From: an uncultured Alphaproteobacteria bacterium
GTDB lineage: Bacteria > Pseudomonadota > Alphaproteobacteria > RF32 > CAG-239
DNA: 64,000 bases
NCBI GenBank assembly: GCA_944391715.1
Contig: CALXUP010000008.1
Span: 1,036-65,035, forward strand
Direction: 5' to 3'
Shown: positions 13,513-59,975 of the stretch, in pieces
Layout: each line of letters opens with the position of its first letter
Position numbering within the stretch: position 1 is the stretch's first letter
The notes under the pieces: model-generated
What the model saw: the letters and a program-made list of their open reading frames with translations, nothing else
What the model was told of the DNA's origin: nothing
Database searches by the model: none
Translations under genes and position numbers: made by a program

Positions 13513-14076
13513 ATGAAAATTACATTGACAGGAAAACAAGTAGACATTGGCGACAGACTGCGTTCACATGTTGAAGAAAATATTTTGAACTCTGTAAATA
13601 AATATTTTAGTGCACCAATCAGCTGCAACGTTTATTTCTCCAAAGAGCGTGATGATTTTTGTGCTGAAGTTACCGTTCATCCTGCCAAAAACATCGTTTT
13701 AAAAGGCAGCGGCATTGCTGGTGATCCCTACTCTGCATTTGATAATGCCAACGCACATATTGCCACCCGCCTGCGTCGCCATAAAACAAAATTAAATGAC
13801 CACAAAGGCAAAACCAGCCTGGCCGAAATTGCCAGCGAAGCTGTTTTCCGCATTGACGAATCACAGGAAGAAATCGACATTGATGATGCTCCGTTGACAA
13901 TTGCCGAAGTCGAAGCCAACATCCCGGTATGCACGGTTTCGGAAGCCGTTATGTTTATGGATCTGAACGAAGAATGTGCCTTAATGTTCAGAAACAGCGC
14001 CAACGGTCACATCAGCATGGTATACCGCCGCAAAGACGGCAACATTGGCTGGGTTGAGCCCAAAGCTGAAAATTAA
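13513..14076 (+). CDS. hpf: ribosome hibernation promoting factor (long HPF form)
   Basis: Starts MKITLTGKQVDIGDRLRSHVEE, typical of the sigma-54 modulation protein family. A C-terminal extension is present. I prefer the ATG at 13513 to the TTG at 13498. Confidence 0.88.
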   Translation: MKITLTGKQVDIGDRLRSHVEENILNSVNKYFSAPISCNVYFSKERDDFCAEVTVHPAKNIVLKGSGIAGDPYSAFDNANAHIATRLRRHKTKLNDHKGKTSLAEIASEAVFRIDESQEEIDIDDAPLTIAEVEANIPVCTVSEAVMFMDLNEECALMFRNSANGHISMVYRRKDGNIGWVEPKAEN

Positions 14077-44661: not shown

Positions 44662-44881
44662 CCACCTATTTAAAATTAAACCATCTTCTATCTGACTTTT
44701 GCAGACAAATCTGCCTGTTTTTTATATCATTAATCCCGCCTTGTCAATCTTAAATTCAAAATCGCCCCGATATTCATGCGCTTTTTCTGCCCCTAAAATT
44801 TCTGCCAACACCCCTCATCCTCAAAACCAAATTTGAATCGCCTTAACAAAAAAGTTACCACTCTAAAAAACGGCCAATAAA

Positions 44882-44914
44882 AAAAACCGCCCTTTCGGAC
44901 GGCTCTTTTTATTG
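44882..44914. repeat. 33-nt direct repeat, copy A (hairpin terminator module)
   Basis: aaaaaccgccctttcggacggctctttttattg is identical to 46312-46344. On the minus strand it forms a gagccgtccgaaagggcgg hairpin plus T-run after the 142-aa gene. Confidence 0.9.
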
Positions 44915-44948
44915 CCAACACATTGGGCCACCCACAAATATCTGTCCC

Positions 44949-46175: not shown

Positions 46176-46311
46176 GATATATTCCTCATTTTTTTTAATT
46201 TAGTATCAGTATATCATGATTTTTATCGAATGTAAATTCGTAACCAGAAATGGCATATCAAATACTATCCATAATAACTAAGATAACCCTATTGATAACT
46301 TCATTAATGCA

Positions 46312-46348
46312 CAAAAACCGCCCTTTCGGACGGCTCTTTTTATTGGCA
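46312..46348. repeat. 33-nt direct repeat, copy B, ending in a tRNA-Trp 3'-end mimic TGGCAG (46343-46348)
   Basis: Identical to 44882-44914. It then reads tggcag, matching the complement of the tRNA 3' terminus at 59900-59905. Confidence 0.9.
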
Positions 46349-46445
46349 GAAGATATTAGGACAATAAGCGGACTTTATTCACAACAAAAGTCCTTGACTT
46401 TTATTTCTAACTTTTATAACTTAACAACAATAAAATTTATAATTT

Positions 46446-46894: not shown

Positions 46895-47100
46895 AGTCCG
46901 TGTAACAAGCGGGAAACTTCTCTTAGTTTTGCTAGGCTTTAGCCGCAGCAAAACTTAGTTGTTCGCGCAAGTAGAAAGCTTAAAGCTTTCGTAGTGGCGC
47001 AAACAGCCTCTTTGATAACATCGCACACGGACTCGATTAACTTATTGATTTATAAAGAAAAAAAGACGCTTTTCGGCGTCTTTATCTTGATTGGCAGGGG
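46895..47100. repeat. boundary module C: ~140-nt multi-hairpin element, then a hairpin terminator, then TGGCAGGGG (47092-47100)
   Basis: Closing stem agtccgtgt (46895-46903) / acacggact (47025-47033). Internal 12-bp hairpin 46922-46933/46947-46958 and hairpin 46974-46990. Terminator aagacgc-ttttc-ggcgtctt. The last 9 nt are identical to 59900-59908. Confidence 0.8.
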
Positions 47101-47845: not shown

Positions 47846-47960
47846 AGTCCGTATAATAAGCGGGAATTGATGTCTATGACAACACTTCACACGGACTCAA
47901 CTAACTTATTGAATTATAATAAAAAAAGACGCCTTAAAGCGTCTTCATCTTGAGTGGCAG
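47846..47960. repeat. boundary module D: short version of module C, then a hairpin terminator, then TGGCAG (47955-47960)
   Basis: agtccgt (47846-47852) ... cacacggact (47888-47897). The stretch cacacggactcaactaacttattgaattataat...aagacgccttaaagcgtctt...tggcag is about 80% identical to 47024-47097. Confidence 0.8.
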
Positions 47961-48074
47961 CGCAAACTTTATGACCTTAGGAAAAAATACTCTGATGAAT
48001 TAACTGAATTATACCCTATTGTTCAAAGTTTAGAAGACGATCCTCAAGTTCAGAAAATTCTAAAAACGAATTGA
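47955..48074 (+). other. start-less open frame continuing from TGG-CAG (WQ RKLYDLRKKYSDELTELYPIVQSLEDDPQVQKILKTN stop); candidate detached C-terminal coding segment of the large serine recombinase
   Basis: The frame is open from 47913 to the TGA at 48072-48074 with no ATG/GTG/TTG or SD. The TGG-CAG phase is identical to that of the recombinase ORF at 59900-59905. Confidence 0.4.
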
Positions 48075-48122
48075 GCTCAATATTTTTATTATATAATCAA
48101 TGGCTAAAGGAAATAAGAAAAA

Positions 48123-48374
48123 ATGATTAAAGACTTTTATATTTGCCTGGACGATAAGGCATTAAATTACGCACTAAAGCATTTTAGCAATTCTTTTACA
48201 AAGATATTGCGTTGTTATACTGGGTTAGAAGTTGAAATGATTGTTAAAACAATGGAATCCAATAAAAGCAAGAACTTCTATACGCTTCGAGCAACACAAA
48301 GTAGAATTTTAAAAGCAACCATTAAAAACCTTGAAGTCTTAGGTGCTATTTTTGAAAGAGCGGATAAAGAATAA
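48123..48374 (+). CDS. hypothetical protein (83 aa)
   Basis: ORF with an upstream aaggaaataagaaaaaATG. A hairpin follows (cccac...gtggg). Confidence 0.45.
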   Translation: MIKDFYICLDDKALNYALKHFSNSFTKILRCYTGLEVEMIVKTMESNKSKNFYTLRATQSRILKATIKNLEVLGAIFERADKE

Positions 48375-48572
48375 AAAGCAACCCACCAGCTAAGCTAGTG
48401 GGTATTCATAAGTGTGGGTACCCCTTACGGTACCAGTGAATGCCTAAAAGTAGGACTTTCAATTTCCAGTAACTCCTTGATTTTTCTTTGAAGAACACTC
48501 TAGTCGATATTCAAAGAAAACATCACAAAGAGTTGCTAAAAATTTATGAGCAAGTAAAAAAGTTAGAATTTA

Positions 48573-48974
48573 CTAAAACCCATGACTAAGCAAGTACTCA
48601 ATATATTTTTCAAATCCCATTTTCGAAAGATATTTTAAAAATACATCTCTTGGTGGAGTATTAGCCATATAGGGTTTACCAGAACCAGTATACAAACCGC
48701 CACCAGGACCGGTATACAAACCGCCACCAGGCCCCGTATATAATCCACCTCCTGGACCAGTATACAAACCTCCACCAGGTCCTGTGTACAGTCCACCTCC
48801 TGGTCCCGTATACAAACCGCCACCAGGCCCCGTATACAAACCACCTCCAGGACCGGTGTATAAACCACCACCGGGTCCGGTATATGCACCTCCTCCAGGA
48901 CCAGTATATAATCCACCACCAGGACCAGTGTATAATCCCCCACCAGGTCCAGTATATCTATTTCTCGGCCACAT
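48573..48974 (-). CDS. glycine-rich repeat protein: 11 tandem GPGGGLYT octapeptides plus a 37-aa unique C-terminal domain
   Basis: ATG preceded by AAGGAG (8-nt spacing). The unique C-terminus is ...PPRDVFLKYLSKMGFEKYIEYLLSHGF. The repeat units differ almost only at synonymous sites. Confidence 0.7.
   Translation of the reverse strand: MWPRNRYTGPGGGLYTGPGGGLYTGPGGGAYTGPGGGLYTGPGGGLYTGPGGGLYTGPGGGLYTGPGGGLYTGPGGGLYTGPGGGLYTGPGGGLYTGSGKPYMANTPPRDVFLKYLSKMGFEKYIEYLLSHGF
48687..48950. repeat. 24-nt tandem repeat x 11 (coding, imperfect at third codon positions)
   Basis: Read directly from the sequence. All frames are open on both strands because of the periodicity. Confidence 0.95.
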
Positions 48975-49037
48975 AATTTAACTCCTTATTCTAAATATAT
49001 TAAATGGGTGCCCAATTTGAGTTGGGCACCCTGACTC

Positions 49038-49184
49038 TTATTTTTTCTTAGAAGGTTTCTGACTTAAAGCAGAACCTGCTGCAGTTTTACTGGTACTACT
49101 AAAGCGACCATCGCGAAGAACTTTTGATGCTGCGGAAGCTGCTTTTGCACTAGTTACTTTGCAAGTTTTAGAACATTTATTCAT
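49038..49184 (-). CDS. possible 48-aa Lys/Ser/Ala-rich small protein
   Basis: Manual translation gives MNKCSKTCKVTSAKAASAASKVLRDGRFSSTSKTAAGSALSQKPSKKK. AAGGA lies about 9 nt upstream. Flanked by hairpins at 49004-49031 and 49218-49245. Confidence 0.4.
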   Translation of the reverse strand: MNKCSKTCKVTSAKAASAASKVLRDGRFSSTSKTAAGSALSQKPSKKK

Positions 49185-49250
49185 TTTTCTATTCCTTTCT
49201 TATTAATAGGAGAAGATGGGTTGGAGGAAATTTATCCTCCAACCAAGATG

Positions 49251-49391
49251 CTATCTATCAGGTACAAGAAAGCAAAAAGCCTTCCATCCGTAGTCTCTAG
49301 CATACAAAATCACACCATTTTTCAGGCGAATCTTGGCTGTGTAGAGCCAGCGATAACCGATAGGAGCAGCTTCACGACAACTATGTGTCAT
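49251..49391 (-). CDS. possible 46-aa small protein
   Basis: Manual translation gives MTHSCREAAPIGYRWLYTAKIRLKNGVILYARDYGWKAFCFLVPDR. A strong SD, AAGGAG, lies 7 nt upstream. Confidence 0.45.
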   Translation of the reverse strand: MTHSCREAAPIGYRWLYTAKIRLKNGVILYARDYGWKAFCFLVPDR

Positions 49392-49536
49392 GTTATTTCT
49401 CCTTGTTAAGAGCCAAAAATTAGTTGATTTTTAATAAATAGGACTGTAGAATAGAATCTGCTAAGATTTAGAAACGACAGTTTCTATTTACCAAAAGGGG
49501 AAAAGCTGGCTCTGTTTAGCTTTTCCTCAAAACTTT

Positions 49537-49860
49537 TTAAATTAACTCATAAATGCCTTTTCTGTTTTCAACACTCCTAATTAATGGATGTTCTTCCCTC
49601 GACATATTATACGCCTTAAGGGTGATTTGTCGTTTTGTCTTTTTCCCATCATCTTCGTCCTTATATTTACGATAAAATCCGACTGTCAGCTCATCCACAG
49701 AAAGAGGTCTTCCTGCTAATTTAAGCAATTCAATGATTCTTTTCGCAAATATATCCGTGTTAATTCCATCAGCTATATCTGCCGGAATGTCATCTATGGA
49801 GAACAAATCAAATATATCTTTTTCTTTAGTCTCTTCTTCGGATATCAGCGAATCACTCAT
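49537..49860 (-). CDS. hypothetical protein (107 aa), possibly a winged-helix DNA-binding protein
   Basis: Acidic N-terminus followed by IIELLKLAGRPLSVDELTVGFYRKY, which is HTH-like. First gene of a minus-strand string of small ORFs. Confidence 0.45.
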   Translation of the reverse strand: MSDSLISEEETKEKDIFDLFSIDDIPADIADGINTDIFAKRIIELLKLAGRPLSVDELTVGFYRKYKDEDDGKKTKRQITLKAYNMSREEHPLIRSVENRKGIYELI

Positions 49861-50306
49861 TATGTCAACCTTTCATAAATAGACTCGATTATGTCGATGA
49901 TGGTAGCATCATACTTACCCCATGTCAATCCAAAATTATTTTGAATCATGTTTTTTTATTTTTTTGAACACTTGAAAATATTTTAACAGTATTTTTTCGA
50001 GTCTTATGTGGCAAAGTACTTTTCTATATAAACTGCATATTTTTATCCAGATATTTTGTTTTCATTAAGACCTAGTTATTTCAATATGTTATACAAAACA
50101 AATACTATTTTATAAGAATTCTGTATAAATTATATAGATACAAAACATATCTTGCGCAAAGACAAAACGATAAATTTGCGAAAATTTTGATTATTTTAAA
50201 AAGTTAATAAAGCATTAATTGTTGAGTATTAAATTGATGATATCCACAGTTTTTTATCAAAAATGGCAAAACAGAAAAATAATTTTAAAGATTAACACCC
50301 TTTTCC

Positions 50307-50906
50307 TCACACCATCTCAATAATTTTCTTTTGTGCATCGGTGTTGTATTCAATATAGCGTTGAGTCGTGGCAAGAGTGGAATGTCCGGCAAGCATACGG
50401 ATGTCGTTTAAGGTTCCGCCTGCCAAGCTGATATTTTTTGCTGCGGTGGTGATAAAGGTTCTACGTCCACTATGTGAGGAGCAACCTTCGAAGCCGATTT
50501 CTTTATATAAATTATAAAAGAAGTTCACGATTGCTTGTGGGCTGGTCTTGTTGGTACGTTCTGTGGTGATAATCCGATTCGTTAGAGCAAAATGCTCATT
50601 TTTCTTCTGCTCAGCCAACAATTCTGCCAGTAAAATTGCCAAATCCTTATGCAGAGGAATAATGCGGCCGGATTGTTTACCTTTAGAGGCTTTATTAATA
50701 AGATTAATTTCTTGGCTTAATTGTCCTTCTGAATCACAAACCATCAGCCAATTCAAACTTGCGATTTCTTTAGCTCGTAATCCTGCTTTATAACTCAACA
50801 TAAAAATAATTTTATTGCGGAGCGGATATCTTGTCCGTTCCAAGTAACCCAATGTTAGCTCTTGCTGTTTTGGGGTAAGTATTTTTGCTTGTTTATTAAG
50901 TGCCAT
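50307..50906 (-). CDS. short tyrosine recombinase (catalytic domain only, 199 aa)
   Basis: GLRAKEI (Arg I), HSGRRTF (His-x-x-Arg) and LAGHSTLATTQRYIE (His/Tyr nucleophile). No N-terminal SAM-like domain. Confidence 0.8.
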   Translation of the reverse strand: MALNKQAKILTPKQQELTLGYLERTRYPLRNKIIFMLSYKAGLRAKEIASLNWLMVCDSEGQLSQEINLINKASKGKQSGRIIPLHKDLAILLAELLAEQKKNEHFALTNRIITTERTNKTSPQAIVNFFYNLYKEIGFEGCSSHSGRRTFITTAAKNISLAGGTLNDIRMLAGHSTLATTQRYIEYNTDAQKKIIEMV

Positions 50907-50916
50907 TTCTTCTAAA

Positions 50917-51039
50917 ACTCATTATGTTATTGAAAGTACATCATAAATTATAATGAGTATAAAATAAAAGTCCAGGTATAAAGTCTTGTAACGCTTGAAA
51001 AATAAGGACTCATTATAAAACTTAGATTATATAATGAGT
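50917..51039. repeat. two inverted-repeat pairs ACTCATTAT/ATAATGAGT plus an ATAAAAGTCC...GGACTC module
   Basis: Repeat pairs at 50917-50925/50950-50958 and 51008-51016/51031-51039. ataaaagtcc at 50964-50973 is identical to 46891-46899 plus one base, and ggactc is at 51006-51011. Located immediately upstream of the tyrosine recombinase gene. Confidence 0.8.
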
Positions 51040-51252
51040 TTATCCGCCACAGACTTTGCAAGGTCTGGCACCTTGTGATTTTGCCTTGTCGTTGGTGGTT
51101 TTTATACAGTTTTTGGTACAACGTTTTGCCCATTTACAGGTTGGGCTATGATAAATATAAGTCTTGGTATTCATAACCACGGTTGAGTTGTCGGCAGCCA
51201 AAACAGGTGCGGATAAATGCAGGAAAATTAAGAAACATACGGCTCTTTTCAT
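51040..51252 (-). CDS. small secreted Cys-rich protein with an Ada-like YH..C...C zinc motif
   Basis: Signal peptide ending VLAADN, then YIYHSPTCKWAKRC...ARPCKVCGG. Confidence 0.55.
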   Translation of the reverse strand: MKRAVCFLIFLHLSAPVLAADNSTVVMNTKTYIYHSPTCKWAKRCTKNCIKTTNDKAKSQGARPCKVCGG

Positions 51253-51998
51253 CTTTCGCTCCAGACTTTATTATAAATTTTTCCCCAGCCTTCATTATGG
51301 CTTGCTCCATCAACTTCTATAATTAAATCATCGTTTCCGACAAATTCACGTGCCAATATCGGTGGCATAACTTTATCATCACTGCCGACATAATGGATTT
51401 GCGGAATTTTGGCGAACTGTTTGCGATAGCTTTCCAAATTCATTGATTCATTAAGCGGCGGCAGATTATGATATTGTGTCCATACCAAGTGGTCGAGATT
51501 TCCGGCAATGGTTATAATTTTTTTGACATTCAGCCCCAGTTTTGTTGTGGCAACCAAACTAGCAACCTGTGCTCCTCCGGAAAATCCGATTAAAATAACA
51601 GGATTGTTACCGACAATATTTTTAATTGCCTCATATTCTGCATTAATAACTTCTGGCGCGAAACGGGCAGTTGTCCAATGTCTTTTGGAACAAATCGGAC
51701 TTTTAATATATTGGCACGGTCTGGCAAGGTAAATTACGTTCGGGCTGTTGTCGCCAAAAGCCAGTTCACGAGCTAAGGTTCCGCGAGGTGTCGGATTTTG
51801 TGTTGCTTTGCCTCGGGCATTAAAAGCATAACCGTCGCCTTCTATATATATTTTATAAGGAGCCGCCGGATTTGTAACCTTTTGCCAACTGGCAAGGATA
51901 AAATCCCGTGTTTCAACCTCTTTATACACAAAGTCAGCCGGCACCTTGATTGCTGTGCATCCGGTCAGAAACAGCAATGTTATTAATGCTTTTATCAT
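51249..51998 (-). CDS. lipoprotein alpha/beta-hydrolase (VirJ/AcvB-like by pattern)
   Basis: Lipobox LFLTGC, GxSxG nucleophile elbow GFSGGAQVA, and later D/H candidates (GSDD, GASHNEGW). Confidence 0.6.
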   Translation of the reverse strand: MIKALITLLFLTGCTAIKVPADFVYKEVETRDFILASWQKVTNPAAPYKIYIEGDGYAFNARGKATQNPTPRGTLARELAFGDNSPNVIYLARPCQYIKSPICSKRHWTTARFAPEVINAEYEAIKNIVGNNPVILIGFSGGAQVASLVATTKLGLNVKKIITIAGNLDHLVWTQYHNLPPLNESMNLESYRKQFAKIPQIHYVGSDDKVMPPILAREFVGNDDLIIEVDGASHNEGWGKIYNKVWSER

Positions 51999-52099
51999 AC
52001 GTTAAGCCCCTTATAAAAGGATTATATCGGCTTATTTATAAAAATTCCAGAGGGTTTTTGACTTTTAGCTTGATTGTCTTCAAAAGGCTTTATAATATA

Positions 52100-52423
52100 A
52101 ATTCAGGTTCAGAATTTTTCTGGGCTTAGTACCTTTAGTGGTACGGGGCTTTCATCGGCTCTTATAGTCGTCGGTGTTGGATATAACATCGTCATATTGT
52201 CAGCTACTCATCATAGCCGACAGTAAATATATCCCCGATACATAGCAATATGGTCGGGGAGCTTTTAGCGAATGTTCAGGAACCATATTACTATCTCTGA
52301 AAGAATATGGTTCTAAAGGTTAAAAGAATCATTTACGACTATATGATTGATGAACTCTCCGACCACCTCTAATACAGGTGGTTTTCTTTTAATTGCAATT
52401 AAAGAAGAAGGGATTCTAATCAT
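52100..52423 (+). promoter_or_regulatory. structured ~320-nt leader upstream of the autotransporter, ending in a terminator-like hairpin
   Basis: Mutually exclusive pairings cgggg (52144-52148)/ccccg (52233-52237) versus tccccga (52232-52238)/tcgggga (52254-52260). A 10-bp hairpin at 52280-52289/52304-52313. accacct/aggtggt plus a T-run at 52362-52390. Confidence 0.35.
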
Positions 52424-54907
52424 ATGAGAAAATCTTTATTAATGACAACGGCATTGGTGGCACTTTCGATGTCTGGCAATGCTTATGCAGATGTAACCAT
52501 CAATTCAGACACAGTTCTGGAAAGTGAATATGCCGACAATGTAATAATTTCCGGCGGTAATGTTACAGCTAAAGACAGCTCTACAGTCAGCCTTAATTAT
52601 CCTGACGGAAAAAATTTAACAGTAAACGGCGGGAACTTATCTTTAAACGATTCCACCATTTACACTTTTAACGGCAATACAGAAATCAGTGGAGATGCTG
52701 TTCTTAATTTAAATAATGACAGCGATATCGACACCAACAAATTAACTATCAGCGGAGGGACAATCAACCTTAATAAGGGGGAACTTCGCCAGAATAATAG
52801 TTTTACCATGACCGGCGGTACAATTAACGCAAACGGCCAAACGCAAATAGGTTCTGTCGGAAGAGATACCGAAAAAGTCGAAGGAACCGTCACAAGCTAT
52901 GCCGGAGGCACAACAGATATCAGCGGCGGCGTGATAAATGTTAAAGGCGGCGTAGGTCTTGGCAGTTCTGCCAATGATGTTTACGATAATGGTAATGTTA
53001 TTTTTGGTACCTCTATTAAATTAAGAGGTGATGCAACTCTGGATATTAAAGAGGGAGCAACCTTATTTGCTTATGAAAATTACAAAATTAATGAGCCGGA
53101 TTTAGATAATTCTGACCTTGATGTTGTAACCTTTGGTAATAAAGCCACAATAACAATGAATGACAACACTTCAAAAATTAATCTGGCCGGAACGTTAAGT
53201 GCCAATATTAATGGTGATGACCGCGGCAAAATTCATTTTCAAAATTCCGGTGCTCAGATTGACGGTGATGTTGAAGCTGCCAGCCTGATTTTTGAAGACA
53301 GCCATACCTTAAGCCAAGCTGTTTCCGGTGAAATCGGTGGCTTGGATATTTTTGAAATTAAAAAAGGCACCATGGTTTATGATAAGGAAATCAACGGCGG
53401 CGCTTCCAGCGTTATTGTCGGCGAAGGTGCAACGCTTGATATAGGAACAAATACTTTGCATTCCGGCGGTGAAAAAGCCGTTTCCGGTGAAGGTGTTCAC
53501 TTCAAAGACAATTCGACTTTAGCCTTTACCGTAACCGATAAAGACACTTATGGTAAAATCCACGCCAATTACGTTAATATCAGCGAAAACGGTACAAATT
53601 TAAATATGACCTTAAACGGAGCCGCTTTGGCCAAAGGTGAAACAACAACCTTAAAATTATTTAATGGTGAAGATTCCGATACGGTAGAAATCGAAGGTAA
53701 GTTTGCCAACCTGAGCCAAAATTCCCGTTATGAATTTATCGATAATGGCGACGGAACTTTTGATGTTACTTCTGTCGGTTCTGCCACAGATGCAGTAGTT
53801 GATGCCGGTGGTTCTGCCAATAATGCCGGAACAGCCGAGGCATGGGACAGCGTCAGTGCTTCAACCAGCTCTCCGGTTGCTGCCGCAGTTACGGAACAAT
53901 TGGCACAGCTTTCCAACAGCACAAATGCTGCTGAGCAGAAAGCCTATGTTGACGCTTTGACGGCGGTTGCTCCGGAAGTTGCTCCGATGGTTCAAAAGAC
54001 ACAGACAGAAACAGCTAATCAGGTCTTTGGTGCCGTATCAACCCGTTTAACCGGTGGTTCAATCTCAACAGGTGGCGAAGGTATGGCTTCCGGCGATAAT
54101 ATTTTCAAACGTGGTGCAATGTGGGTTCAGGGCTTGTTCAACAAATCCAAACTGGACGACACATCCAAGGCGAAGGGTTTTGATGCAGATTCTCAAGGTA
54201 TTGCTTTCGGTGCCGAGAAGTTTGTAACCGATGATACCAAAGTTGGTATCGGTTACGCTTATACCAACACCGATATTGATGGTTTCATGCGTGATACGGA
54301 TGTTGATACACATACTGCCATCTTGTATGGTGAATATAAACCATCCAACTGGTATGTAAATGGTATTGCGACCTATGGCTGGTCTGATTATGAAGAAAGC
54401 AAGAGTGTCGCCGGAGTTGGTGTCAAAGCTGACTACGATGTCGAAACTTTTGGCTTACAGGCAATGACTGGTTACGATATGAACATCAACGGCTTAGGCA
54501 TTACGCCGGAAGCTGGCTTGCGTTATGTTCATATCAAACAGGATGCTTATAAAGATTCTGCCGACCAACGTGTATCTGCCAATGACAGCGACATTTTGAC
54601 CGGTGTTATTGGTGCTAAGGTTAGCAAGAACTTTGAGCTGTCCAATGGTATGAACATTAAGCCGGAAGCCAGAATTGCCGCGACTTATGACCTGTTTAAC
54701 GATGACGTTAATTCTGTCGTAACCTTGGCTAATAGTTCAGCTTATGCTGTTGAAGGTGAAGCTCTTGACCGCTTCGGAATGGAATTTGGTGCCGGTGTAA
54801 CTGCGGAAGTCAACGACAATGTCGAACTCTCGCTTGGTTATGAAGGCAAATTCCGTGAGGATTACCAAGACCATACAGGCTTGATTAACGCCAAGTATAA
54901 ATTTTAA
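52424..54907 (+). CDS. autotransporter (type Va) outer-membrane protein
   Basis: Signal peptide ...GNAYA/DV. Gly/Asn/Thr-rich beta-helix-like passenger. C-terminal ~270-aa beta-barrel with alternating pattern, ending ...GLINAKYKF. Confidence 0.88.
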   Translation: MRKSLLMTTALVALSMSGNAYADVTINSDTVLESEYADNVIISGGNVTAKDSSTVSLNYPDGKNLTVNGGNLSLNDSTIYTFNGNTEISGDAVLNLNNDSDIDTNKLTISGGTINLNKGELRQNNSFTMTGGTINANGQTQIGSVGRDTEKVEGTVTSYAGGTTDISGGVINVKGGVGLGSSANDVYDNGNVIFGTSIKLRGDATLDIKEGATLFAYENYKINEPDLDNSDLDVVTFGNKATITMNDNTSKINLAGTLSANINGDDRGKIHFQNSGAQIDGDVEAASLIFEDSHTLSQAVSGEIGGLDIFEIKKGTMVYDKEINGGASSVIVGEGATLDIGTNTLHSGGEKAVSGEGVHFKDNSTLAFTVTDKDTYGKIHANYVNISENGTNLNMTLNGAALAKGETTTLKLFNGEDSDTVEIEGKFANLSQNSRYEFIDNGDGTFDVTSVGSATDAVVDAGGSANNAGTAEAWDSVSASTSSPVAAAVTEQLAQLSNSTNAAEQKAYVDALTAVAPEVAPMVQKTQTETANQVFGAVSTRLTGGSISTGGEGMASGDNIFKRGAMWVQGLFNKSKLDDTSKAKGFDADSQGIAFGAEKFVTDDTKVGIGYAYTNTDIDGFMRDTDVDTHTAILYGEYKPSNWYVNGIATYGWSDYEESKSVAGVGVKADYDVETFGLQAMTGYDMNINGLGITPEAGLRYVHIKQDAYKDSADQRVSANDSDILTGVIGAKVSKNFELSNGMNIKPEARIAATYDLFNDDVNSVVTLANSSAYAVEGEALDRFGMEFGAGVTAEVNDNVELSLGYEGKFREDYQDHTGLINAKYKF

Positions 54908-54928
54908 GCGTTAAACAGTCCAAACGAA

Positions 54929-54966
54929 GCCGCCCCGGATATTTTTTTATTCGGGGCTGCTTTTTC
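54929..54966 (+). terminator. intrinsic terminator after the autotransporter
   Basis: Stem 54929-54938 / 54951-54960 (gccgccccgg / tcggggctgc) plus a T-run. Confidence 0.7.
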
Positions 54967-55161
54967 TTTTAAAAGTGCTCTTGACAATGAAATTTTTTTA
55001 TTATATCGATTCCAACAAATCCCACCGGGTCAAGCATATTCCGGGTCTTGCTGCTTGAAAAGAAAACATGATGAACCCATTGGCTCTACAGCTTAGATTC
55101 CTCATGTTTTTTGGTTCTCTATGGCTGTAGTTATTTTAACCACATAATCATGGAGAAACGC

Positions 55162-55944
55162 ATGACAAAAGAAAAGAAAATGTTAAGTTTGCAGCAAACA
55201 CTTGAATTTTTTGCTGATGATGTAAAACCTCTCCCGTATCATTTAGATAAAGAACGTCCTCATCACATCGAAGATGAAGAAATGGACACGGCAAAAGTTA
55301 CTTTGCGTTCTTGGATTGAAACAGGCCTCTTGAAACTCTACGGTATTCCCGGCAAAATCGAAATTAACGATGTCTCCTCGTTGGATGACAATTTTTTAAA
55401 GGTCACGCAAGAGAACGGACACCAAGCATTATATCCGTACAACGACTGGATTGAACTGAACACACCGACTTCTTTCTTTAGCCACCGCTACCCGCTGGAA
55501 ATAATCCGCGACAATAAAGGGGAACCGTTGAAACGAGTTCTTTTACCCAAAGAATTATCCGGTTATGATTTTGACTGGCAACATAGCATAGTCGCCCAAA
55601 ATCTGACCTGCGTGTCATTAACCGACAATGGCATATATATTCGTACAGAAGGATTCGCCTTCATCACGGTCCAATTTGATGAATTGGATGTGTTGTGCAG
55701 AGCCGATTCTATTGATTTTGAAAAGGCAGAAGAACAATTGAAGGATGCTATATGCCAGAAATGCGGAAAACTGGAACTGAAGCAACATTACCGGAGCTGG
55801 GCCATTAAGATGAAAGAAGCCGGTTACACTCTAAATCAAGCGGCAATAGAGATTCGAAGAATCTTTGACCACTACCGCACACCATATCCAACGGAGCGGA
55901 CAATCAGGAATCACATTCAAGATATTATTCCGCCAAAACAGTAA
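55162..55944 (+). CDS. hypothetical protein (260 aa from the ATG at 55162) with a C-terminal HTH-like segment
   Basis: GGAG lies 6 nt upstream of the ATG at 55162. The C-terminus AGYTLNQAAIEIRRIF...TERTIRNHI is HTH-like. Confidence 0.5.
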   Translation: MTKEKKMLSLQQTLEFFADDVKPLPYHLDKERPHHIEDEEMDTAKVTLRSWIETGLLKLYGIPGKIEINDVSSLDDNFLKVTQENGHQALYPYNDWIELNTPTSFFSHRYPLEIIRDNKGEPLKRVLLPKELSGYDFDWQHSIVAQNLTCVSLTDNGIYIRTEGFAFITVQFDELDVLCRADSIDFEKAEEQLKDAICQKCGKLELKQHYRSWAIKMKEAGYTLNQAAIEIRRIFDHYRTPYPTERTIRNHIQDIIPPKQ

Positions 55945-55962
55945 AGCAAGCAAACACCAACC

Positions 55963-55995
55963 AAATGACCTCAAACTTTGAGGTCATTTTTTTTG
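55963..55995 (+). terminator. intrinsic terminator
   Basis: Stem aatgacctc / gaggtcatt plus a run of 8 T. Confidence 0.8.
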
Positions 55996-56010
55996 AATTT
56001 TTGCATTTTT

Positions 56011-56059
56011 CTAAAAAGTTCAGAAAAACGTCTGATTTTTTCAAAAAACATCCGATTTT
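56011..56059. repeat. iteron-like 20-nt-period direct repeats upstream of the Rep-like gene
   Basis: aaaaacgtctgatttt (56024-56039) and aaaaacatccgatttt (56044-56059), 13/16 identical. A partial third copy, aaaaagttcag, starts at 56013. Confidence 0.6.
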
Positions 56060-56158
56060 CTTCAATTCGCTTCAAATGACACAGCAGCCGCCTTCTGATA
56101 TTCTTTTGTCATAACAACAGCTTAGCGGCTACAAACAAGCAACCAAAGGATAAGGAAA

Positions 56159-56344
56159 TTGAGCAAACACCTTAAAGAATATTACGAAGAAATTCGCAGT
56201 TTCTGCCCCGAGCTTTCCGAAGAGGAAGCCATCGAGGCTGGTGATGCTCTGCTCCAAATCGCTAAGCTGCTGTCTGACACGGTTCAGGAAACACCGGAAC
56301 TGAAAACGTTAATTGAAACAGGAAAGGAGAACGAAATCGAATAA
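56159..56344 (+). CDS. small acidic hypothetical protein (61 aa, TTG start)
   Basis: AAGGATAAGGAAA lies upstream. The ORF overlaps the start of the next ORF. Confidence 0.4.
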   Translation: MSKHLKEYYEEIRSFCPELSEEEAIEAGDALLQIAKLLSDTVQETPELKTLIETGKENEIE

Positions 56345-57455
56345 AAAAAATGTTGCCGACACCTTCATTCTGCTAATTCCATACCAAGACATTAAGATTA
56401 CAAAACCTGAACGGTTTTCGCCCAATCTTGAAACTTTATGGAATTTAGGCAACGCACAATCGGTAAATTGCTCTAGCTACGCGACAGCAATTGAAAAGCA
56501 GAAACATTATTATCCTAAATTATCATTAACTGCTCATCGCCGCGTTGGAGAATATAGCGTCATGTTGCGAATAGAATTTTCGGCTATGAAACTGATTAAC
56601 CAACCGTCAAACAACCTTGAAGAAGTTTGTGATGAGGATTTTGAAACCATCGTTAAGACCTTGCAAAAGCGTATATCTGAACTTGGAGCAAGAGTTTCGC
56701 CAGAAAGCATCCGAAAGGCAAAAGTCACTCGTGTCGATTATGGCAAAAATTGCAAAGTACAGATAAAGCCTGCATTGCTGCTGCAAGAATTAGCTAAAGC
56801 AGACATAAGCAAACGCCTAGACTCTGCCAACAAAACTTACCGTAATGACGGACATTCATTGCATTTTTTAACAACGCATAAGAACGTCGTACTTTATGAT
56901 AAGTTAGCAGACATAAGAAAAGCTAATTTTAGCCCACGCCGGGCTGTAGGTGAGAATGCTCAATTACTTGATTGGACATCTCTAGCCGACGAGCAATATC
57001 TGCGTTTTGAGGTTCAGCTCGGTAATTCAGACACAATTCGGCAAACCTTAAATAAAGCAGAGGTTAACGTCCCAGAATTGACTTTTGAAAATCTATTTCA
57101 AAGTGAAATCTGTCGCAAGGTTAACCTTTATTACTGGGGTGAACTTATGCAAGCGTGCCTGATACACCATCTCTGCAATGAAAATGTCGCAGATTTGTTC
57201 AAGCAGCTACTTAACAACGGCTACAAAATCTTAAAAGCTCTGCAACTCATCGGACTAACCAGTGTCTTAAGTGAAATGGGCATGAGAGAATTTCGCTTCC
57301 ATGCCGGAAAAACACTATCACCTGCAATTTACGACTTGCTGCGGAAAATTAAAGACATCACCCCAAGAGAGGATTGGCTCATGAAGCATTATTTAGAAAT
57401 TCAGAGGATAATAGAAGAAAATAACATAATTCAACTTAAAAGGATGAAAAAATGA
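56313..57455 (+). CDS. putative replication-initiation / Rep_trans-like protein (start uncertain)
   Basis: Pattern KVTRVDYGKN ... VVLYDKLADIRK ... YLRFEVQLGN resembles the RxDxxxD / YDK / RxExxL blocks of the phage CRI / replication initiation factor families. Iteron-like repeats lie upstream. Confidence 0.45.
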   Translation: MKQERRTKSNKKNVADTFILLIPYQDIKITKPERFSPNLETLWNLGNAQSVNCSSYATAIEKQKHYYPKLSLTAHRRVGEYSVMLRIEFSAMKLINQPSNNLEEVCDEDFETIVKTLQKRISELGARVSPESIRKAKVTRVDYGKNCKVQIKPALLLQELAKADISKRLDSANKTYRNDGHSLHFLTTHKNVVLYDKLADIRKANFSPRRAVGENAQLLDWTSLADEQYLRFEVQLGNSDTIRQTLNKAEVNVPELTFENLFQSEICRKVNLYYWGELMQACLIHHLCNENVADLFKQLLNNGYKILKALQLIGLTSVLSEMGMREFRFHAGKTLSPAIYDLLRKIKDITPREDWLMKHYLEIQRIIEENNIIQLKRMKK

Positions 57456-58285
57456 ACAATTTGAACGATTCAATAAAACATATTATTTTGCTAACCAGAG
57501 TGTCCTGCTCCAAACAGGACGTTGAAGAATCAACGGAACAGCAATTGGCTATATGCCAAAAATATATCAAAAACCTCGGCATTAACAAATTTGAGGTTTA
57601 TACGCTGAAAGAAAGTTCTTCACGCGGTAACCGAAAAGAATTTCAGCAAATGATCAACGATATAAAAAAATGTGACGGCTGTACGGCTCTGGTTTTTACC
57701 AAGGTAGACAGGCTCCTACGTAGATTCAATGAGGTACCGGAACTAGACAAACTCCGACAGCAAGGAAAAATTCAGCTTCATGCCGTTAAAGACAATCTGG
57801 TACTTACTAAAGATTCTACGGCTTCAGACATCCACAGATTTCGTCTTCTTGCTGCTGATGCGGAAATGTTTAGTAACCGGATTTCTGAAGAAACCCGTGA
57901 AAAAATATTGATTTGTTGCCAACAAGGTCGCTATCCGGGACTAGCCCCCATTGGGTACAGGAATCAACGAAACAAATATGGGCTGGCGTGGATTTATACC
58001 GATGTACAAAAAGCTTTATTGGTTGCCGAAATATTTAAAAAATTTGTAGAAGGTAACAGTCTTAAACAACTTGCTGTTTGGTGCCTTAAGACAGGATTAA
58101 CTTCTGTCAAGAATAACCCTCTGGGCACTAAAGCCATAATTCGGATTTTGCAAAATCCGTTTTATATGGGGCAATTCCGCCATAACGGAAAACTTTACGC
58201 CCATTATTATGAGCGGTTGGTTAAGGAAGATGTTTGGAAAAAATGCCAAATCCGTCTGAAACATAACCGAGAAAATAAGGAATAA
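57452..58285 (+). CDS. serine recombinase, truncated type (resolvase catalytic domain plus recombinase domain; no zinc ribbon or coiled coil)
   Basis: LLTRVSCSKQD catalytic Ser region. Collinear with the first ~280 aa of the downstream large serine recombinase (VDRLLRR, APIGY, ILQNPFYMG). Confidence 0.8.
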   Translation: MNNLNDSIKHIILLTRVSCSKQDVEESTEQQLAICQKYIKNLGINKFEVYTLKESSSRGNRKEFQQMINDIKKCDGCTALVFTKVDRLLRRFNEVPELDKLRQQGKIQLHAVKDNLVLTKDSTASDIHRFRLLAADAEMFSNRISEETREKILICCQQGRYPGLAPIGYRNQRNKYGLAWIYTDVQKALLVAEIFKKFVEGNSLKQLAVWCLKTGLTSVKNNPLGTKAIIRILQNPFYMGQFRHNGKLYAHYYERLVKEDVWKKCQIRLKHNRENKE

Positions 58286-58393
58286 GGGCACCTACCTTGT
58301 CAAATGAAGGCTGGATTAAATTCCGGCCTTCATTGACTTTAAGAAACCAGCAATCCATTAATTAAAAAAACAGACAAAAAAAGGAACAACAAT

Positions 58394-59914
58394 ATGCCAA
58401 GACAGATAAAGAAATTTCAAGCAACAGCAACAAAAGGTATCATTTGGGCAAGAGTTTCATCAAGAGAACAAGAGGATGGCTACTCTTTAGATGCTCAGAT
58501 TGAAAATTCAAAAAGCTACGCCGAGCGTAGAGGAATTGAAATTATTAAAATTTTTGAGATTATTGAAAGTTCAACACAGGGGGATAGAAAACAGTTTCAT
58601 GATATGATTAACTGGGTAAAACGGCAAAAACAACGCATAGCAATTATTTCCGATAAAGTTGACAGACTACAACGACGAGTTTCAGAAGTTCCGGTGCTGG
58701 AAGAATTACGAAAAGCCGGAAAAATCGAACTGCATTTTTCGCGAGAAAATAAAGTCATAGAAAAAGATACAAACGGTTCTGATTTAGCCTGCTACAGAAT
58801 GATTGTTGTTATGGCTGAAAACTATACGGACTGTATTTCGGATAACGTAAAACGGAGCCTTAAACAGATGAGAAAAGAGGGGAAATGGGCTCATAGAGCA
58901 CCCGTAGGTTACCTAAATGTAAAAGACAGCAAAGGTAACAGTGATGTTATTATTGACCCTGACAGGGGGTTCCTTATAACGGCTCTGTTCAAAGAATACG
59001 CAAGCGGAATTTATAACTTAGAACAGATAACGAAAAAAGCACAGGAAATAGGTCTGACAATGCCCGGAAGCAAAAAATTGTACAAACAGACAATACGAAA
59101 TATCTTAAGCAATCGCTTTTATGCCGGAGAGATGTACGGTTATGGCGAGTATTACAAACATCAATATAAAACTTTAATTGACTGGAAGACATTTAACCGG
59201 TGCCAAGAAGTTTTAGAAGGACGCATGAATCATAAAGAACAAAAACACGAACATCTGTTCAAAGGAATAATGAAATGCAAAGAATGCGGTACGATGATAT
59301 CGCCTTACATCAGTATTCATGCGGCAAAAAAGAAAGGCGGAGAAAAAATCGCTTATAAATACCTTTTTTGCCCGAAATGCAAGGGTACGCACATAAATGA
59401 AGGGAAAGGCATTGAAAAAATAAAACAGGCCTTAGGCTCGCTTAAATCGCTTCCTAACGGCGTGTTAGAAAAGATGACGCATTGCCTTCAGGATTTAGTA
59501 TATGAAGACCATAGGATTGAGCTTGAACATAAAAAATATTTAGAGCGAAAATTGCTTGAATGTGACACGAAACAAGAACGGTGGCATGAGCTGTATGCCG
59601 AAGCTAGTATTACACGGAATATACATAGCAAAAAAATAAAAGAACTAGCCCAAGAAAAAGAAAAAATAGCCGAGCAGCTTTTAGGCTACAGTTACTTAGC
59701 ACAACAGAACTTTATAACACTTAAATACTTGACTAGCCTATATTTTCATGCAGACCAGATTTGGGATTTTCCGAAAAATGAGCAAAAACAGAAGATTTTA
59801 AAATTACTCTGTTCGGAAATTTTATTAGACGGGAAAAACATAGTTATTTCAATAAGAAAGCCTATCTTAGAACTGGCTAAAATAGGCTCTTGTCAAATAT
59901 GGCAGGGGCAGTAA
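58394..59914 (+). CDS. large serine recombinase (integrase)
   Basis: 506 aa with WARVSSREQ, VDRLQRR, a recombinase domain, zinc ribbon CKECG...CPKCKG and a coiled-coil region. The last 5 codons (TGG CAG GGG CAG TAA) overlap the 3' end of tRNA-Trp. Confidence 0.88.
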   Translation: MPRQIKKFQATATKGIIWARVSSREQEDGYSLDAQIENSKSYAERRGIEIIKIFEIIESSTQGDRKQFHDMINWVKRQKQRIAIISDKVDRLQRRVSEVPVLEELRKAGKIELHFSRENKVIEKDTNGSDLACYRMIVVMAENYTDCISDNVKRSLKQMRKEGKWAHRAPVGYLNVKDSKGNSDVIIDPDRGFLITALFKEYASGIYNLEQITKKAQEIGLTMPGSKKLYKQTIRNILSNRFYAGEMYGYGEYYKHQYKTLIDWKTFNRCQEVLEGRMNHKEQKHEHLFKGIMKCKECGTMISPYISIHAAKKKGGEKIAYKYLFCPKCKGTHINEGKGIEKIKQALGSLKSLPNGVLEKMTHCLQDLVYEDHRIELEHKKYLERKLLECDTKQERWHELYAEASITRNIHSKKIKELAQEKEKIAEQLLGYSYLAQQNFITLKYLTSLYFHADQIWDFPKNEQKQKILKLLCSEILLDGKNIVISIRKPILELAKIGSCQIWQGQ

Positions 59915-59975
59915 GATTCGAACTCACGACCCTCGGTTTTGGAGACCGATGCTCTACCAACTGAGCTATACCCCT
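59900..59975 (-). tRNA. trnW: tRNA-Trp (anticodon CCA)
   Basis: Manual fold of the reverse complement: AGGGGTA-TA-GCTC-AGTTGGTA-GAGC-A-TCGGT-CTCCAAA-ACCGA-GGGTC-GTGAG-TTCGAAT-CTTAC-TGCCCCT-G-CCA. 76 nt with an encoded CCA. All stems pair, with one G-U in the acceptor stem and one in the T stem. Confidence 0.9.

Follow-up and report, generated by a model that had tools for sequence, protein, structure and literature searches.

Where tyrosine-integrase islands enter tRNA genes, the 3′ part of the tRNA is regenerated from a copy carried by attP, the attachment site of the element, and a displaced tRNA fragment is left behind. The large serine recombinases (LSRs) SPbeta SprA and the A118/LI, Bxb1 and PhiC31 integrases have attP outside the integrase open reading frame (ORF), and their targets are protein-coding genes or intergenic sites. 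In mycobacteriophages of clusters G, N and P, as Broussard and colleagues are said to have described in 2013, attP lies in the repressor gene and integration removes an ssrA-like degradation tag. Here we describe an 11.9-kb integrative element within a 64,000-nt stretch of DNA (the window) from an uncultured alphaproteobacterium of the CAG-239 lineage (GenBank contig CALXUP010000008.1, positions 1,036 to 65,035). The LSR gene of this element very probably contains attP within its own 3′ end, and recombination in the core would exchange a 506-aa form of the enzyme for a 541-aa form.

Attachment sites that span an integrase gene have been described before. The attP of Mx8 lies within int, whose 3′ end is exchanged for a new one upon integration; the prophage enzyme is active but altered (PMC6070905; Tojo et al. 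1996, as cited in PMC4383910). The ‘suicidal’ integrases of the SSV type, from archaeal viruses and plasmids, recombine at a site within their own ORF, and the integrase gene is partitioned when the element enters a tRNA gene (PMC7253208). A 2015 survey regards tRNA targeting and an int-spanning attP as features of tyrosine recombinases and states that no serine integrase was known to have a tRNA gene as its target (PMC4383910). In open-access papers and bioRxiv we found no account of tRNA-gene targeting by a serine integrase or of an attP within the int gene of one, and a term search of the LSR survey by Durrant et al. 2022 listed neither ‘tRNA’ nor a relevant passage on overlap between attP and an ORF. 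The tRNA-targeting serine-integrase clade reported below is apparently undescribed.

Results

The integrase gene ends inside a tRNA gene and an orphan tail lies at the other end of the element

The LSR ORF of the window (coordinates of all features are collected in Table 1) is translated into a protein of 506 aa ending in GSCQIWQGQ. ARAGORN located a single tRNA gene in the window, tRNA-Trp(cca) on the minus strand, and the two genes overlap by their 3′ ends: the integrase TGG codon at 59900-59902 is the complement of the tRNA CCA, and the following CAG corresponds to the discriminator and two acceptor-stem bases. The second TGGCAG, at the left end of the element, is in the same codon phase as the integrase end, and its frame encodes W-Q followed by 37 codons, ending in KILKTN, with a stop at 48072-48074. 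Upstream, this frame is closed by a TGA at 47910-47912, and none of the 14 codons between is ATG, GTG or TTG; an ORF scan of the window found no start-codon ORF of at least 20 aa overlapping 47961-48071 on either strand. These features had been pointed out in a sequence-only reading of the window, namely the W-Q-G-Q ending complementary to the tRNA 3′ end, the second TGGCAG in equal phase with its frame open to 48074, and the lack of a start codon between that frame and the TGA 14 codons upstream; translation, ARAGORN and the ORF scan agree on all of them. That reading had also cautioned that 37 open codons could arise by chance, which is fair for the window alone (probability about 0.04 at a stop probability of 0.082 per codon; 0.043 in shuffles), and the comparison of eight sequences given below removes the caveat.

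Empty sites define the element and its core

To place the boundaries, conspecific strains were identified as contigs encoding the exact NusG protein of the window (L007 and L010, also L008 and L009). In L007 and L010 both flanks are 99% identical to the window and the element is absent, the 3′ end of tRNA-Trp being directly followed by the hairpin terminator that stands left of attL in the window. The flank alignments of the empty sites overlap by exactly six bases, TGGCAG; the inserted element consists of 47961-59899 plus one copy of this core, 11,945 bp in total, and judging from the alignments strand exchange must occur within the 6-bp identity block. Comparison with the empty sites thus shows an 11.9-kb integrative element placed, on sequence evidence by its own LSR, exactly at the CCA end of tRNA-Trp, and excision is expected to restore the attB sequence CATCTTGAGTGGCAGGGGCAG. 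The tRNA-Trp sequence itself is untouched by the insertion. Its terminator is now 12 kb away, the nearest terminator-like site on the tRNA-Trp strand (58516-58530) is a consensus match only, and read-through from tRNA-Trp would now run antisense into int.

Extra copies of a module consisting of a hairpin terminator and (A/T)TCTTGA(T/G)TGGCAG are found at 47063-47097, ~46310-46349 and ~44880-44917, in the AT-rich (~30% GC) 3 kb between secE/nusG and attL. The copy at 47063 runs on with GGGG, like the 3′ end of a tRNA. These modules are present in the empty-site strains too and may have been left by earlier events at the tRNA gene.

The full-length gene is found in other genomes

A homologue search with the hypothetical 541-aa fusion as query revealed proteins that run past W into tails aligning with that of the window: P0002 (541 aa, 82% identity, junction SCQIWQ followed by TKLYDLRKKYSDELAEMH), P0017-19 (543 aa, 57-58% identity, junction SCQVWL followed by TKVYDLRKKYEQELAEMY), P0004 (537 aa, 81% identity) and P0111 (516 aa, 39% identity). 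In DNA alignments, the match of contigs L001-L005 to the window stops at 59903-59905 and starts again at 47955, the overlap being the core only. The predicted attP junction sequence is TGTCAAATATGGCAGCGCAAACTTTATGACC. A degenerate junction pattern retrieved six more human-gut contigs (L097-L102), and the predicted 31-nt junction was found verbatim in one contig, L099, at the same chromosomal place as attL of the window. The attP-type junctions in metagenome contigs form a single uninterrupted ORF of 537-543 aa. The sequence-only reading had predicted a 541-aa recombinase from the attP form, homologues that continue past W into a similar tail, breakpoints inside TGGCAG and an unbroken tail frame. 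The fused ORFs and aligning tails described here bear out the former two predictions; attB, attL, attR and attP-type junctions all break inside TGGCAG, and the tail of no related element carries a stop or frameshift. Its central claim, that the integrase swaps its C-terminus on integration, is supported, and none of the proposed checks came out against it.

Most other homologues diverge exactly past W into translations of antisense tRNA (GRQDSNPRHSVLETDALPAELHP, GWLDSNQRM...ALPLGDTP), with a total length of 506-632 aa that is set by where a stop happens to fall. Since integrated forms tolerate arbitrary C-termini, the core enzyme evidently needs no defined tail.

As to the setting of the attP-type junctions, L001-L004 represent fragments; tandem arrays are seen in L005, L096, L097 and L101, the L005 array having two different autotransporter genes in adjacent members. 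Integrase 3′ relics of 58-85 aa precede the attP-type junction in L098-L100 and L102. In all three of L097, L099 and L100, the decayed copy lies on the far side from the intact element. P0004 is a hybrid in which a P0002-like body (95% identical) is joined to a different tail from a neighbour and followed by a second element with its own LSR; because the host-side B arm is poorly conserved between hosts, this hybrid array fits accretion of incoming elements at attR. The arrays show that the 541-aa form can be encoded stably, and phage contig L183 is the only clearly unintegrated example of the attP form.

Two of these contigs and the relics have further peculiarities. The relics in L098-L100 and L102 are integrase 3′ fragments fused to core, tail and the 83-aa ORF that follows the tail. 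In L100 (687-1233) a ~250-bp unit is duplicated in tandem, each copy ending in TGGCTG. L101 (reverse complement, ~13540-13560) holds a complete element whose LSR ends in WQGT at TGGCAGGGCAcatag; its insertion point has no tRNA gene and mimics only the first 10 nt of the tRNA-Trp 3′ end, and may be a secondary site.

The recombinase has the domains of an LSR followed by an extension

Profile searches of the window enzyme identified a resolvase-type catalytic domain (PF00239, E 1.6e-19, residues 16-165), with R20, S22 and Q26 of the R-x-S nucleophile motif region invariant in 28 homologues, and a Recombinase domain (PF07508, E 4e-10), corresponding to the first DNA-binding domain (DBD1). The zinc ribbon PF13408 scored 17.8 bits, below the cut-off, yet C295, C298, C326 and C329 are invariant. 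An LSR profile aligns to the C-terminal domain of the A118 integrase (4kis, E 4.5e-15) up to position 478, and PHROG 95 matches over residues 9-488. In an AlphaFold2 model of P0002, helices span residues 336-352, 355-372, 374-402 and 408-451, as for the coiled-coil insert of DBD2, and the top Foldseek matches of the model are the SPbeta, Bxb1, PhiC31 and A118 integrases (full-length SPbeta chains, E 3e-20). By domain order, modelled coiled coil and the att-site geometry described below, the window recombinase is an LSR.

Family matches to canonical LSRs end at 478-488, which marks residues 488-541 as an added extension. Of this extension the first 16 residues are retained in the integrated form, as is every recognised domain, and the 506-aa enzyme is probably active, as excision would require.

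The attachment sites follow the serine-integrase rule

Fifteen sites (eight tRNA-side arms and seven P′ arms) were aligned starting at the core. In 8/8 tRNA-side arms, nt 12-17 from the core are taken up by the tRNA T-loop palindrome, TTCGAA or CTCGAA; the corresponding motif of the P′ arms lies at nt 17-22 in 7/7 and reads TTCGAA in L096, L184 and L183, TTAGAA in L090, and TTAGGA in the window, L001 and L005. The accepted distinction between serine-integrase sites given in PMC11722253 is that the DBD2 motif of attB stands 5 bp nearer the centre than that of attP, and the 5-bp offset in all 15 sites matches this rule, which indicates genuine LSR att sites. The P′ arm resembles a T-loop mimic that has been displaced, and the L-R-T/K in the tail is what this TTCGAA/TTAGGA DNA motif encodes.

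The cores of the clade are TGGCAG, TGGCTG, TGGTCG, TGGGGC, TGGCTC and TGGCGT, with TGG as the only constant part. The identity block of attP and attB is merely 6 bp, which fits a 2-bp crossover dinucleotide; because TGG contains the only core bases invariant across the clade, the crossover dinucleotide probably lies within it. Such a crossover would let lineages move between tRNA species.

The tail is conserved partly as DNA and partly as protein

Intact 37-codon tails with an equal stop position are found at attL of the integrated elements in L020, L023, L027 and L030 as well as at attP-type junctions. The tail frame is open in eight sequences, representing at least four tail variants, with an equal stop, and the other two frames contain 3-8 stops each. 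Comparing the window gene with the 57%-identical gene of L005, identity at third codon positions is 0.23-0.55 over most of the gene body, 0.70 at codons -64 to -25, 0.95 in the last 20 codons before W and 0.90 in the first 10 codons after it, and falls to background further downstream. This high synonymous-site identity indicates that a ~90-bp block around the core is conserved as DNA, as expected of an attP embedded in coding sequence.

The distal 27 codons of the tail behave differently from this block. The ratio of non-synonymous to synonymous changes (pN/pS) within lineages is 0.10-0.17, with 8.5 synonymous and 3.5 non-synonymous changes between the window and L099, and 12.2 and 8.8, respectively, between L023 and L030, suggesting that the distal tail is translated and under purifying selection. 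The tails of the window, P0002 and P0017 end in KTN, KKD and EKG and are not ssrA-like. Among distant attP forms, those of P0043, P0111, L090, P0162, P0167, P0168 and P0226 end in -LAA (P0043, L090 and P0167 among them), -SAA, -MAA or -EAA, reminiscent of degradation tags of the ssrA type.

Integrases ending at tRNA genes are widespread in the clade

W503 is invariant in both family alignments (14 sequences, and 28 sequences down to 37% identity). A genome survey covered 80 loci of species-representative genomes. At 38 of them the CCA end of an opposite-strand tRNA gene (for Trp, Gln, Pro, His or Asn) falls exactly on the first base of the W codon, and in about 13 further loci a tRNA gene, here also Ala and Glu, lies within a few codons of W. 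The hosts of the clade are mainly uncultured gut Alphaproteobacteria of humans and ruminants, and also Ca. Enterousia, Gastranaerophilales/Melainabacteria, Rickettsiales and phages. An exhaustive search (E<=1e-30) gave 655 clusters at 50% identity; among the best 150 of these, 45 run into an antisense tRNA, 20 stop at most 4 aa from W, and about 15 have tail-like extensions, usually with [LIFV]-R-[TKN] 6-9 residues past W and several ending in -AA. Tails of 22-48 aa recur in distant clusters.

Phage contigs provided a second case of the exchange. L183 encodes a 516-aa attP form, after which come genes for endolysin and baseplate but no array, and L185 encodes an integrase 87% identical to it that ends in tRNA-Gln (the attR form), the tRNA starting at the W codon. 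Left of TGG the two DNAs share 86% identity, and right of it 28%; their common core is TGGCTG, and on these alignments the pair is an independent replicate of the C-terminal swap.

More distant integrases (24-35% identity) in viral contigs likewise end in antisense tRNA-Arg, -Pro or -Glu, and for tRNA-Arg the 3′ end of the tRNA again coincides with the W codon. Those of the IMG/VR viral contigs L116-L157, a large group of 24-30%-identical serine integrases ending in SRGDRI or running on as GRGGRIRT..., lie antisense to tRNA-Pro genes; their junction is a few bases inside the acceptor stem and not at an in-frame TGG.

Element cargo and neighbouring features

Table 1. Positions, strands and supporting evidence of the features at the integration locus (window coordinates).
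Feature	Position	Strand	Evidence or remark
Displaced hairpin and T-run terminator of tRNA-Trp	47925..47946	-	terminator scan; empty sites of L007, L010
attL core TGGCAG, left copy of the 6-bp identity block	47955..47960	+	overlap of empty-site and attP-type alignments
Integrated element body, 11,939 bp (11,945 bp with one core)	47961..59899		absent from L007, L010
Orphan 37-codon tail (RKLYDLRKKYSDELTELYPIVQSLEDDPQVQKILKTN) and stop	47961..48074	+	joined to integrase in L001-L005 and L096-L102
attP P′ arm, first ~30 nt of the tail, with TTAGGA	TTAGGA at 47977-47982		motif position
83-aa ORF	48123..48374	+	ORF list; no Pfam, NCBIfam or PHROG match
Fossil second tail (LKNTLVDIQRKHHKELLKIYEQVKKLEFTKTHD, then stop) with decayed core TTGAAG	48488..48589	+	tblastn and hidden Markov model; resembles P0004-type tail
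Tyrosine-recombinase-like protein, compact, 199 aa	50307-50906	-	Pfam
Alpha/beta-hydrolase-like gene	51249-51998	-	Pfam
Autotransporter, 827 aa, main cargo gene	52424-54907		Pfam
Further element ORFs, 277 aa and 380 aa			no family match
Short serine recombinase, 277 aa, Resolvase and Recombinase domains, no zinc ribbon or coiled coil	57452..58285	+	Pfam
LSR, integrated (attR) form, 506 aa	58394..59914	+	Pfam, PHROG 95, Foldseek, A118 profile alignment
LSR parts: residues ~1-487, canonical LSR fold; 488-503, encoded by the attP P arm; last three codons (QGQ), antisense tRNA			
attP P arm, within the last ~20 integrase codons	59843..59899	+	DNA-level conserved block
attR core TGGCAG, the integrase W-Q codons	59900..59905	+	complement of tRNA-Trp CCA, discriminator and first two acceptor-stem bases
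tRNA-Trp(cca), intact target gene, attB B′ arm	59900..59975	-	ARAGORN; T-loop TTCGAA at 59917-59922

In the attP configuration, 48 nt separate the integrase stop from the 83-aa ORF downstream of it, both genes being on one strand; the ORF follows the tail in L001, L003-L005 and L097-L101 with 62-89% aa identity. The fossil tail lies in a ~660-bp segment (48375-49037) that the L020 element, 97% identical elsewhere, lacks; this segment also holds a 133-aa ORF (48573..48974, minus strand) with ~12 GPGGGLYT repeats. An older element decayed by internal deletion was considered as the source of the fossil tail and rejected, the whole of 48375-49037 being a window-specific insert missing from L020.

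The gene set of the window is also found in L001, L005, L020, L097 and L101. The best-conserved cargo consists of the tyrosine-recombinase-like and hydrolase-like proteins (~90% aa identity in L005, L097 and L101); the autotransporter versions in related elements are diverged (72-97% aa identity). The element thus carries recombinases of both the serine and the tyrosine family. Family searches with its 83-, 107-, 277- and 380-aa ORFs, which could have marked it as a phage, satellite or mobilizable element, gave no Pfam, NCBIfam or PHROG match. The short serine recombinase stands directly upstream of the LSR, and the pair is confined to the subclade whose LSRs share at least 54% identity with that of the window; in Ca. 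Enterousia elements the second recombinase is a different one, and the group at 37-46% identity lacks any. The short recombinase may serve as partner, directionality factor or resolvase. A ~900-bp insertion in int of L017, L018 and L020, considered from 2.4-kb tblastn matches, was rejected, the matches being the short recombinase and the LSR joined.

Discussion

The sequence comparisons place attP inside the 3′ end of the integrase gene itself, and to the reading as a whole we give high confidence. The P arm encodes residues ~484-503 (ending in ILELAKIGSCQIW), the core TGG-CAG encodes W-Q, and the P′ arm encodes the start of the 37-aa tail. Recombination in the 6-bp core cuts the gene, the integrated copy reading through W into the antisense tRNA and stopping after three codons at 506 aa with all catalytic and DNA-binding domains kept; wherever the P arm is joined to the P′ arm, in a free circle, a phage genome or a tandem-array junction, the gene reads through to 541 aa. 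The zinc-ribbon-type motif of attB is the T-loop palindrome TTCGAA, and attP presents a T-loop-like TTCGAA/TTAGGA 5 bp further out.

Several observations weigh against this reading or its parts. Among the contigs searched there is no free circular contig of a window-type element, and the readable attP-type junctions lie in tandem arrays (L005, L096, L097, L101) or beside integrase 3′ relics. No candidate for a recombination directionality factor was recognised among the element genes, where the 83-, 107-, 277- and 380-aa ORFs remain without family. A dyad-symmetry scan of attP and attB gave at best 10-11/26 matches with inconsistent centres, so that half-site symmetry is weak. With respect to a function of the tail, the integrated forms carry arbitrary C-termini of 2 to >120 aa, the segment KLYDLRKKY is kept at synonymous sites too and reflects the DNA site rather than giving certain evidence of protein function, distal pN/pS between tail types is 0.5-1.0, and the AlphaFold2 model of P0002 gives the tail a predicted local distance difference test score (pLDDT) of 28-63.

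Part of this evidence would suit a tail that is a by-product, in which attP must flank the core, the ORF happens to cross it and conservation is the footprint of the P′ arm. Synonymous-site identity that stands at 0.90 in the first 10 tail codons and then falls to background, an L-R-T/K that mirrors the DNA motif, low pLDDT, arbitrary tails on integrated forms and a distal sequence that differs strongly between tail types would all follow from it. We nevertheless consider it improbable, since the 27 codons past the DNA-conserved block are open with an equal stop in eight sequences while ~8% of random codons are stops, the within-lineage distal pN/pS is low (0.10-0.17), and tails of 22-48 aa recur in distant clusters. 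That the frame belongs to some other gene, be it a small ORF, the leader of the 83-aa gene or one encoded by the other strand, is hardly credible: the tail is indeed always paired with the 83-aa ORF 48 nt downstream, but the frame has no start codon among the 14 codons that separate it from the upstream TGA, no ORF of at least 20 aa overlaps it on either strand, and in every attP-type sequence the tail is fused in frame to the integrase.

The arrays raise a different question, namely whether the full-length form ever arises from a free circle. An incoming attP might use the resident attR (P arm, core and tRNA) as a surrogate attB, the 541-aa form then being the product of the inner array member only. 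Arrays with hybrid junctions exist (P0004), the decayed copy in L097, L099 and L100 always lies away from the intact element, and the host-side B arm is poorly conserved between hosts, all of which suits such accretion; the empty sites, however, show that elements come and go as units, and L183 has the attP form beside lysis and baseplate genes without an array. Accretion as the sole source seems to us rather unlikely, and it is compatible with, not exclusive of, an attP embedded in the integrase gene.

With attP embedded in this way, the distal tail may modulate the full-length enzyme, although we advance a regulatory role of any kind only tentatively and by analogy. The far C-terminal end of SprA is reported to form part of its switch of directionality (Abe et al. 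2021, as cited in PMC11722253), and the Int made by the Mx8 prophage has altered activity (PMC6070905). On the SprA model we favour a bias towards integration or control of directionality as the role of the tail; for lineages with -LAA tails, proteolytic tagging is the alternative. More speculatively still, the clade might record its recombination state in its own gene, the attP-made enzyme having a selected C-terminal module and the integrated-made enzyme lacking it, as a switch of directionality or dosage that partly replaces a separate directionality factor, with the CCA end and the T-loop serving as a portable target for hopping among tRNA species and phyla.

The textbook picture of serine integrases as simple enzymes with external att sites and protein-coding targets has a gap, as this clade shows tRNA targeting and an int-spanning attP. 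It provides matched natural versions of one enzyme that have or lack a C-terminal module according to integration state, which makes the link between C-terminus and directionality directly testable, and the T-loop-mimic attP arm suggests how the clade recognises a conserved structural RNA gene. The clade may also interest integrase prospecting for genome engineering. For annotation, the 30-120-aa extensions of the ‘GRQDSNPRH...’ type on integrases of this clade are to be read as antisense-tRNA read-through and not as real domains.

Comparison with known systems

The sequence-only reading had likened this locus to gene truncation on integration in some temperate mycobacteriophages, with a possible tuning of integrase stability or directionality. 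For the cluster G/N/P phages outlined above the analogy holds in that attP lies inside a gene and integration removes a C-terminal segment, altering the behaviour of the protein; it fails in that the split gene there is the repressor and the window tail, ending in KILKTN, is no such tag. An ssrA-like ending is likewise absent from P0002 and P0017 and is seen only in some distant tails (LAA, MAA, SAA, EAA), and the degradation-tag idea may apply to those lineages only.

The closest precedent is instead Mx8/Mx9 (IntP/IntX), which shares with our element an attP within the int coding sequence, a tRNA target and a recombinant int with a new 3′ end; in the window element, too, attP spans int and integration changes the int 3′ end. 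The Mx8 enzyme, however, is a tyrosine recombinase with a long identity block, whereas here an LSR acts with a 6-bp block, the crossover is at the CCA end with no tRNA sequence duplicated, and only 37 aa beyond the canonical fold are exchanged. In contrast to SSV-type integrases, residues 1-503 with all known domains stay in one piece: the split falls past residue 503 and matches to canonical LSRs end at ~478-488, so the separation of essential enzyme parts typical of the SSV type is not seen. Tyrosine-integrase islands resemble the element in inserting at the tRNA 3′ end, leaving the tRNA functional and accreting in tandem at the same tRNA, but here only CCA, the discriminator and two bases are common to both sites. 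With the canonical LSRs (SPbeta SprA, A118/LI, Bxb1 and PhiC31) it shares domain order, short att sites and the 5-bp DBD2 offset. An int-spanning attP, known for tyrosine recombinases such as those of Mx8 and SSV, is on the sequence evidence assembled here found in a clade of large serine integrases.

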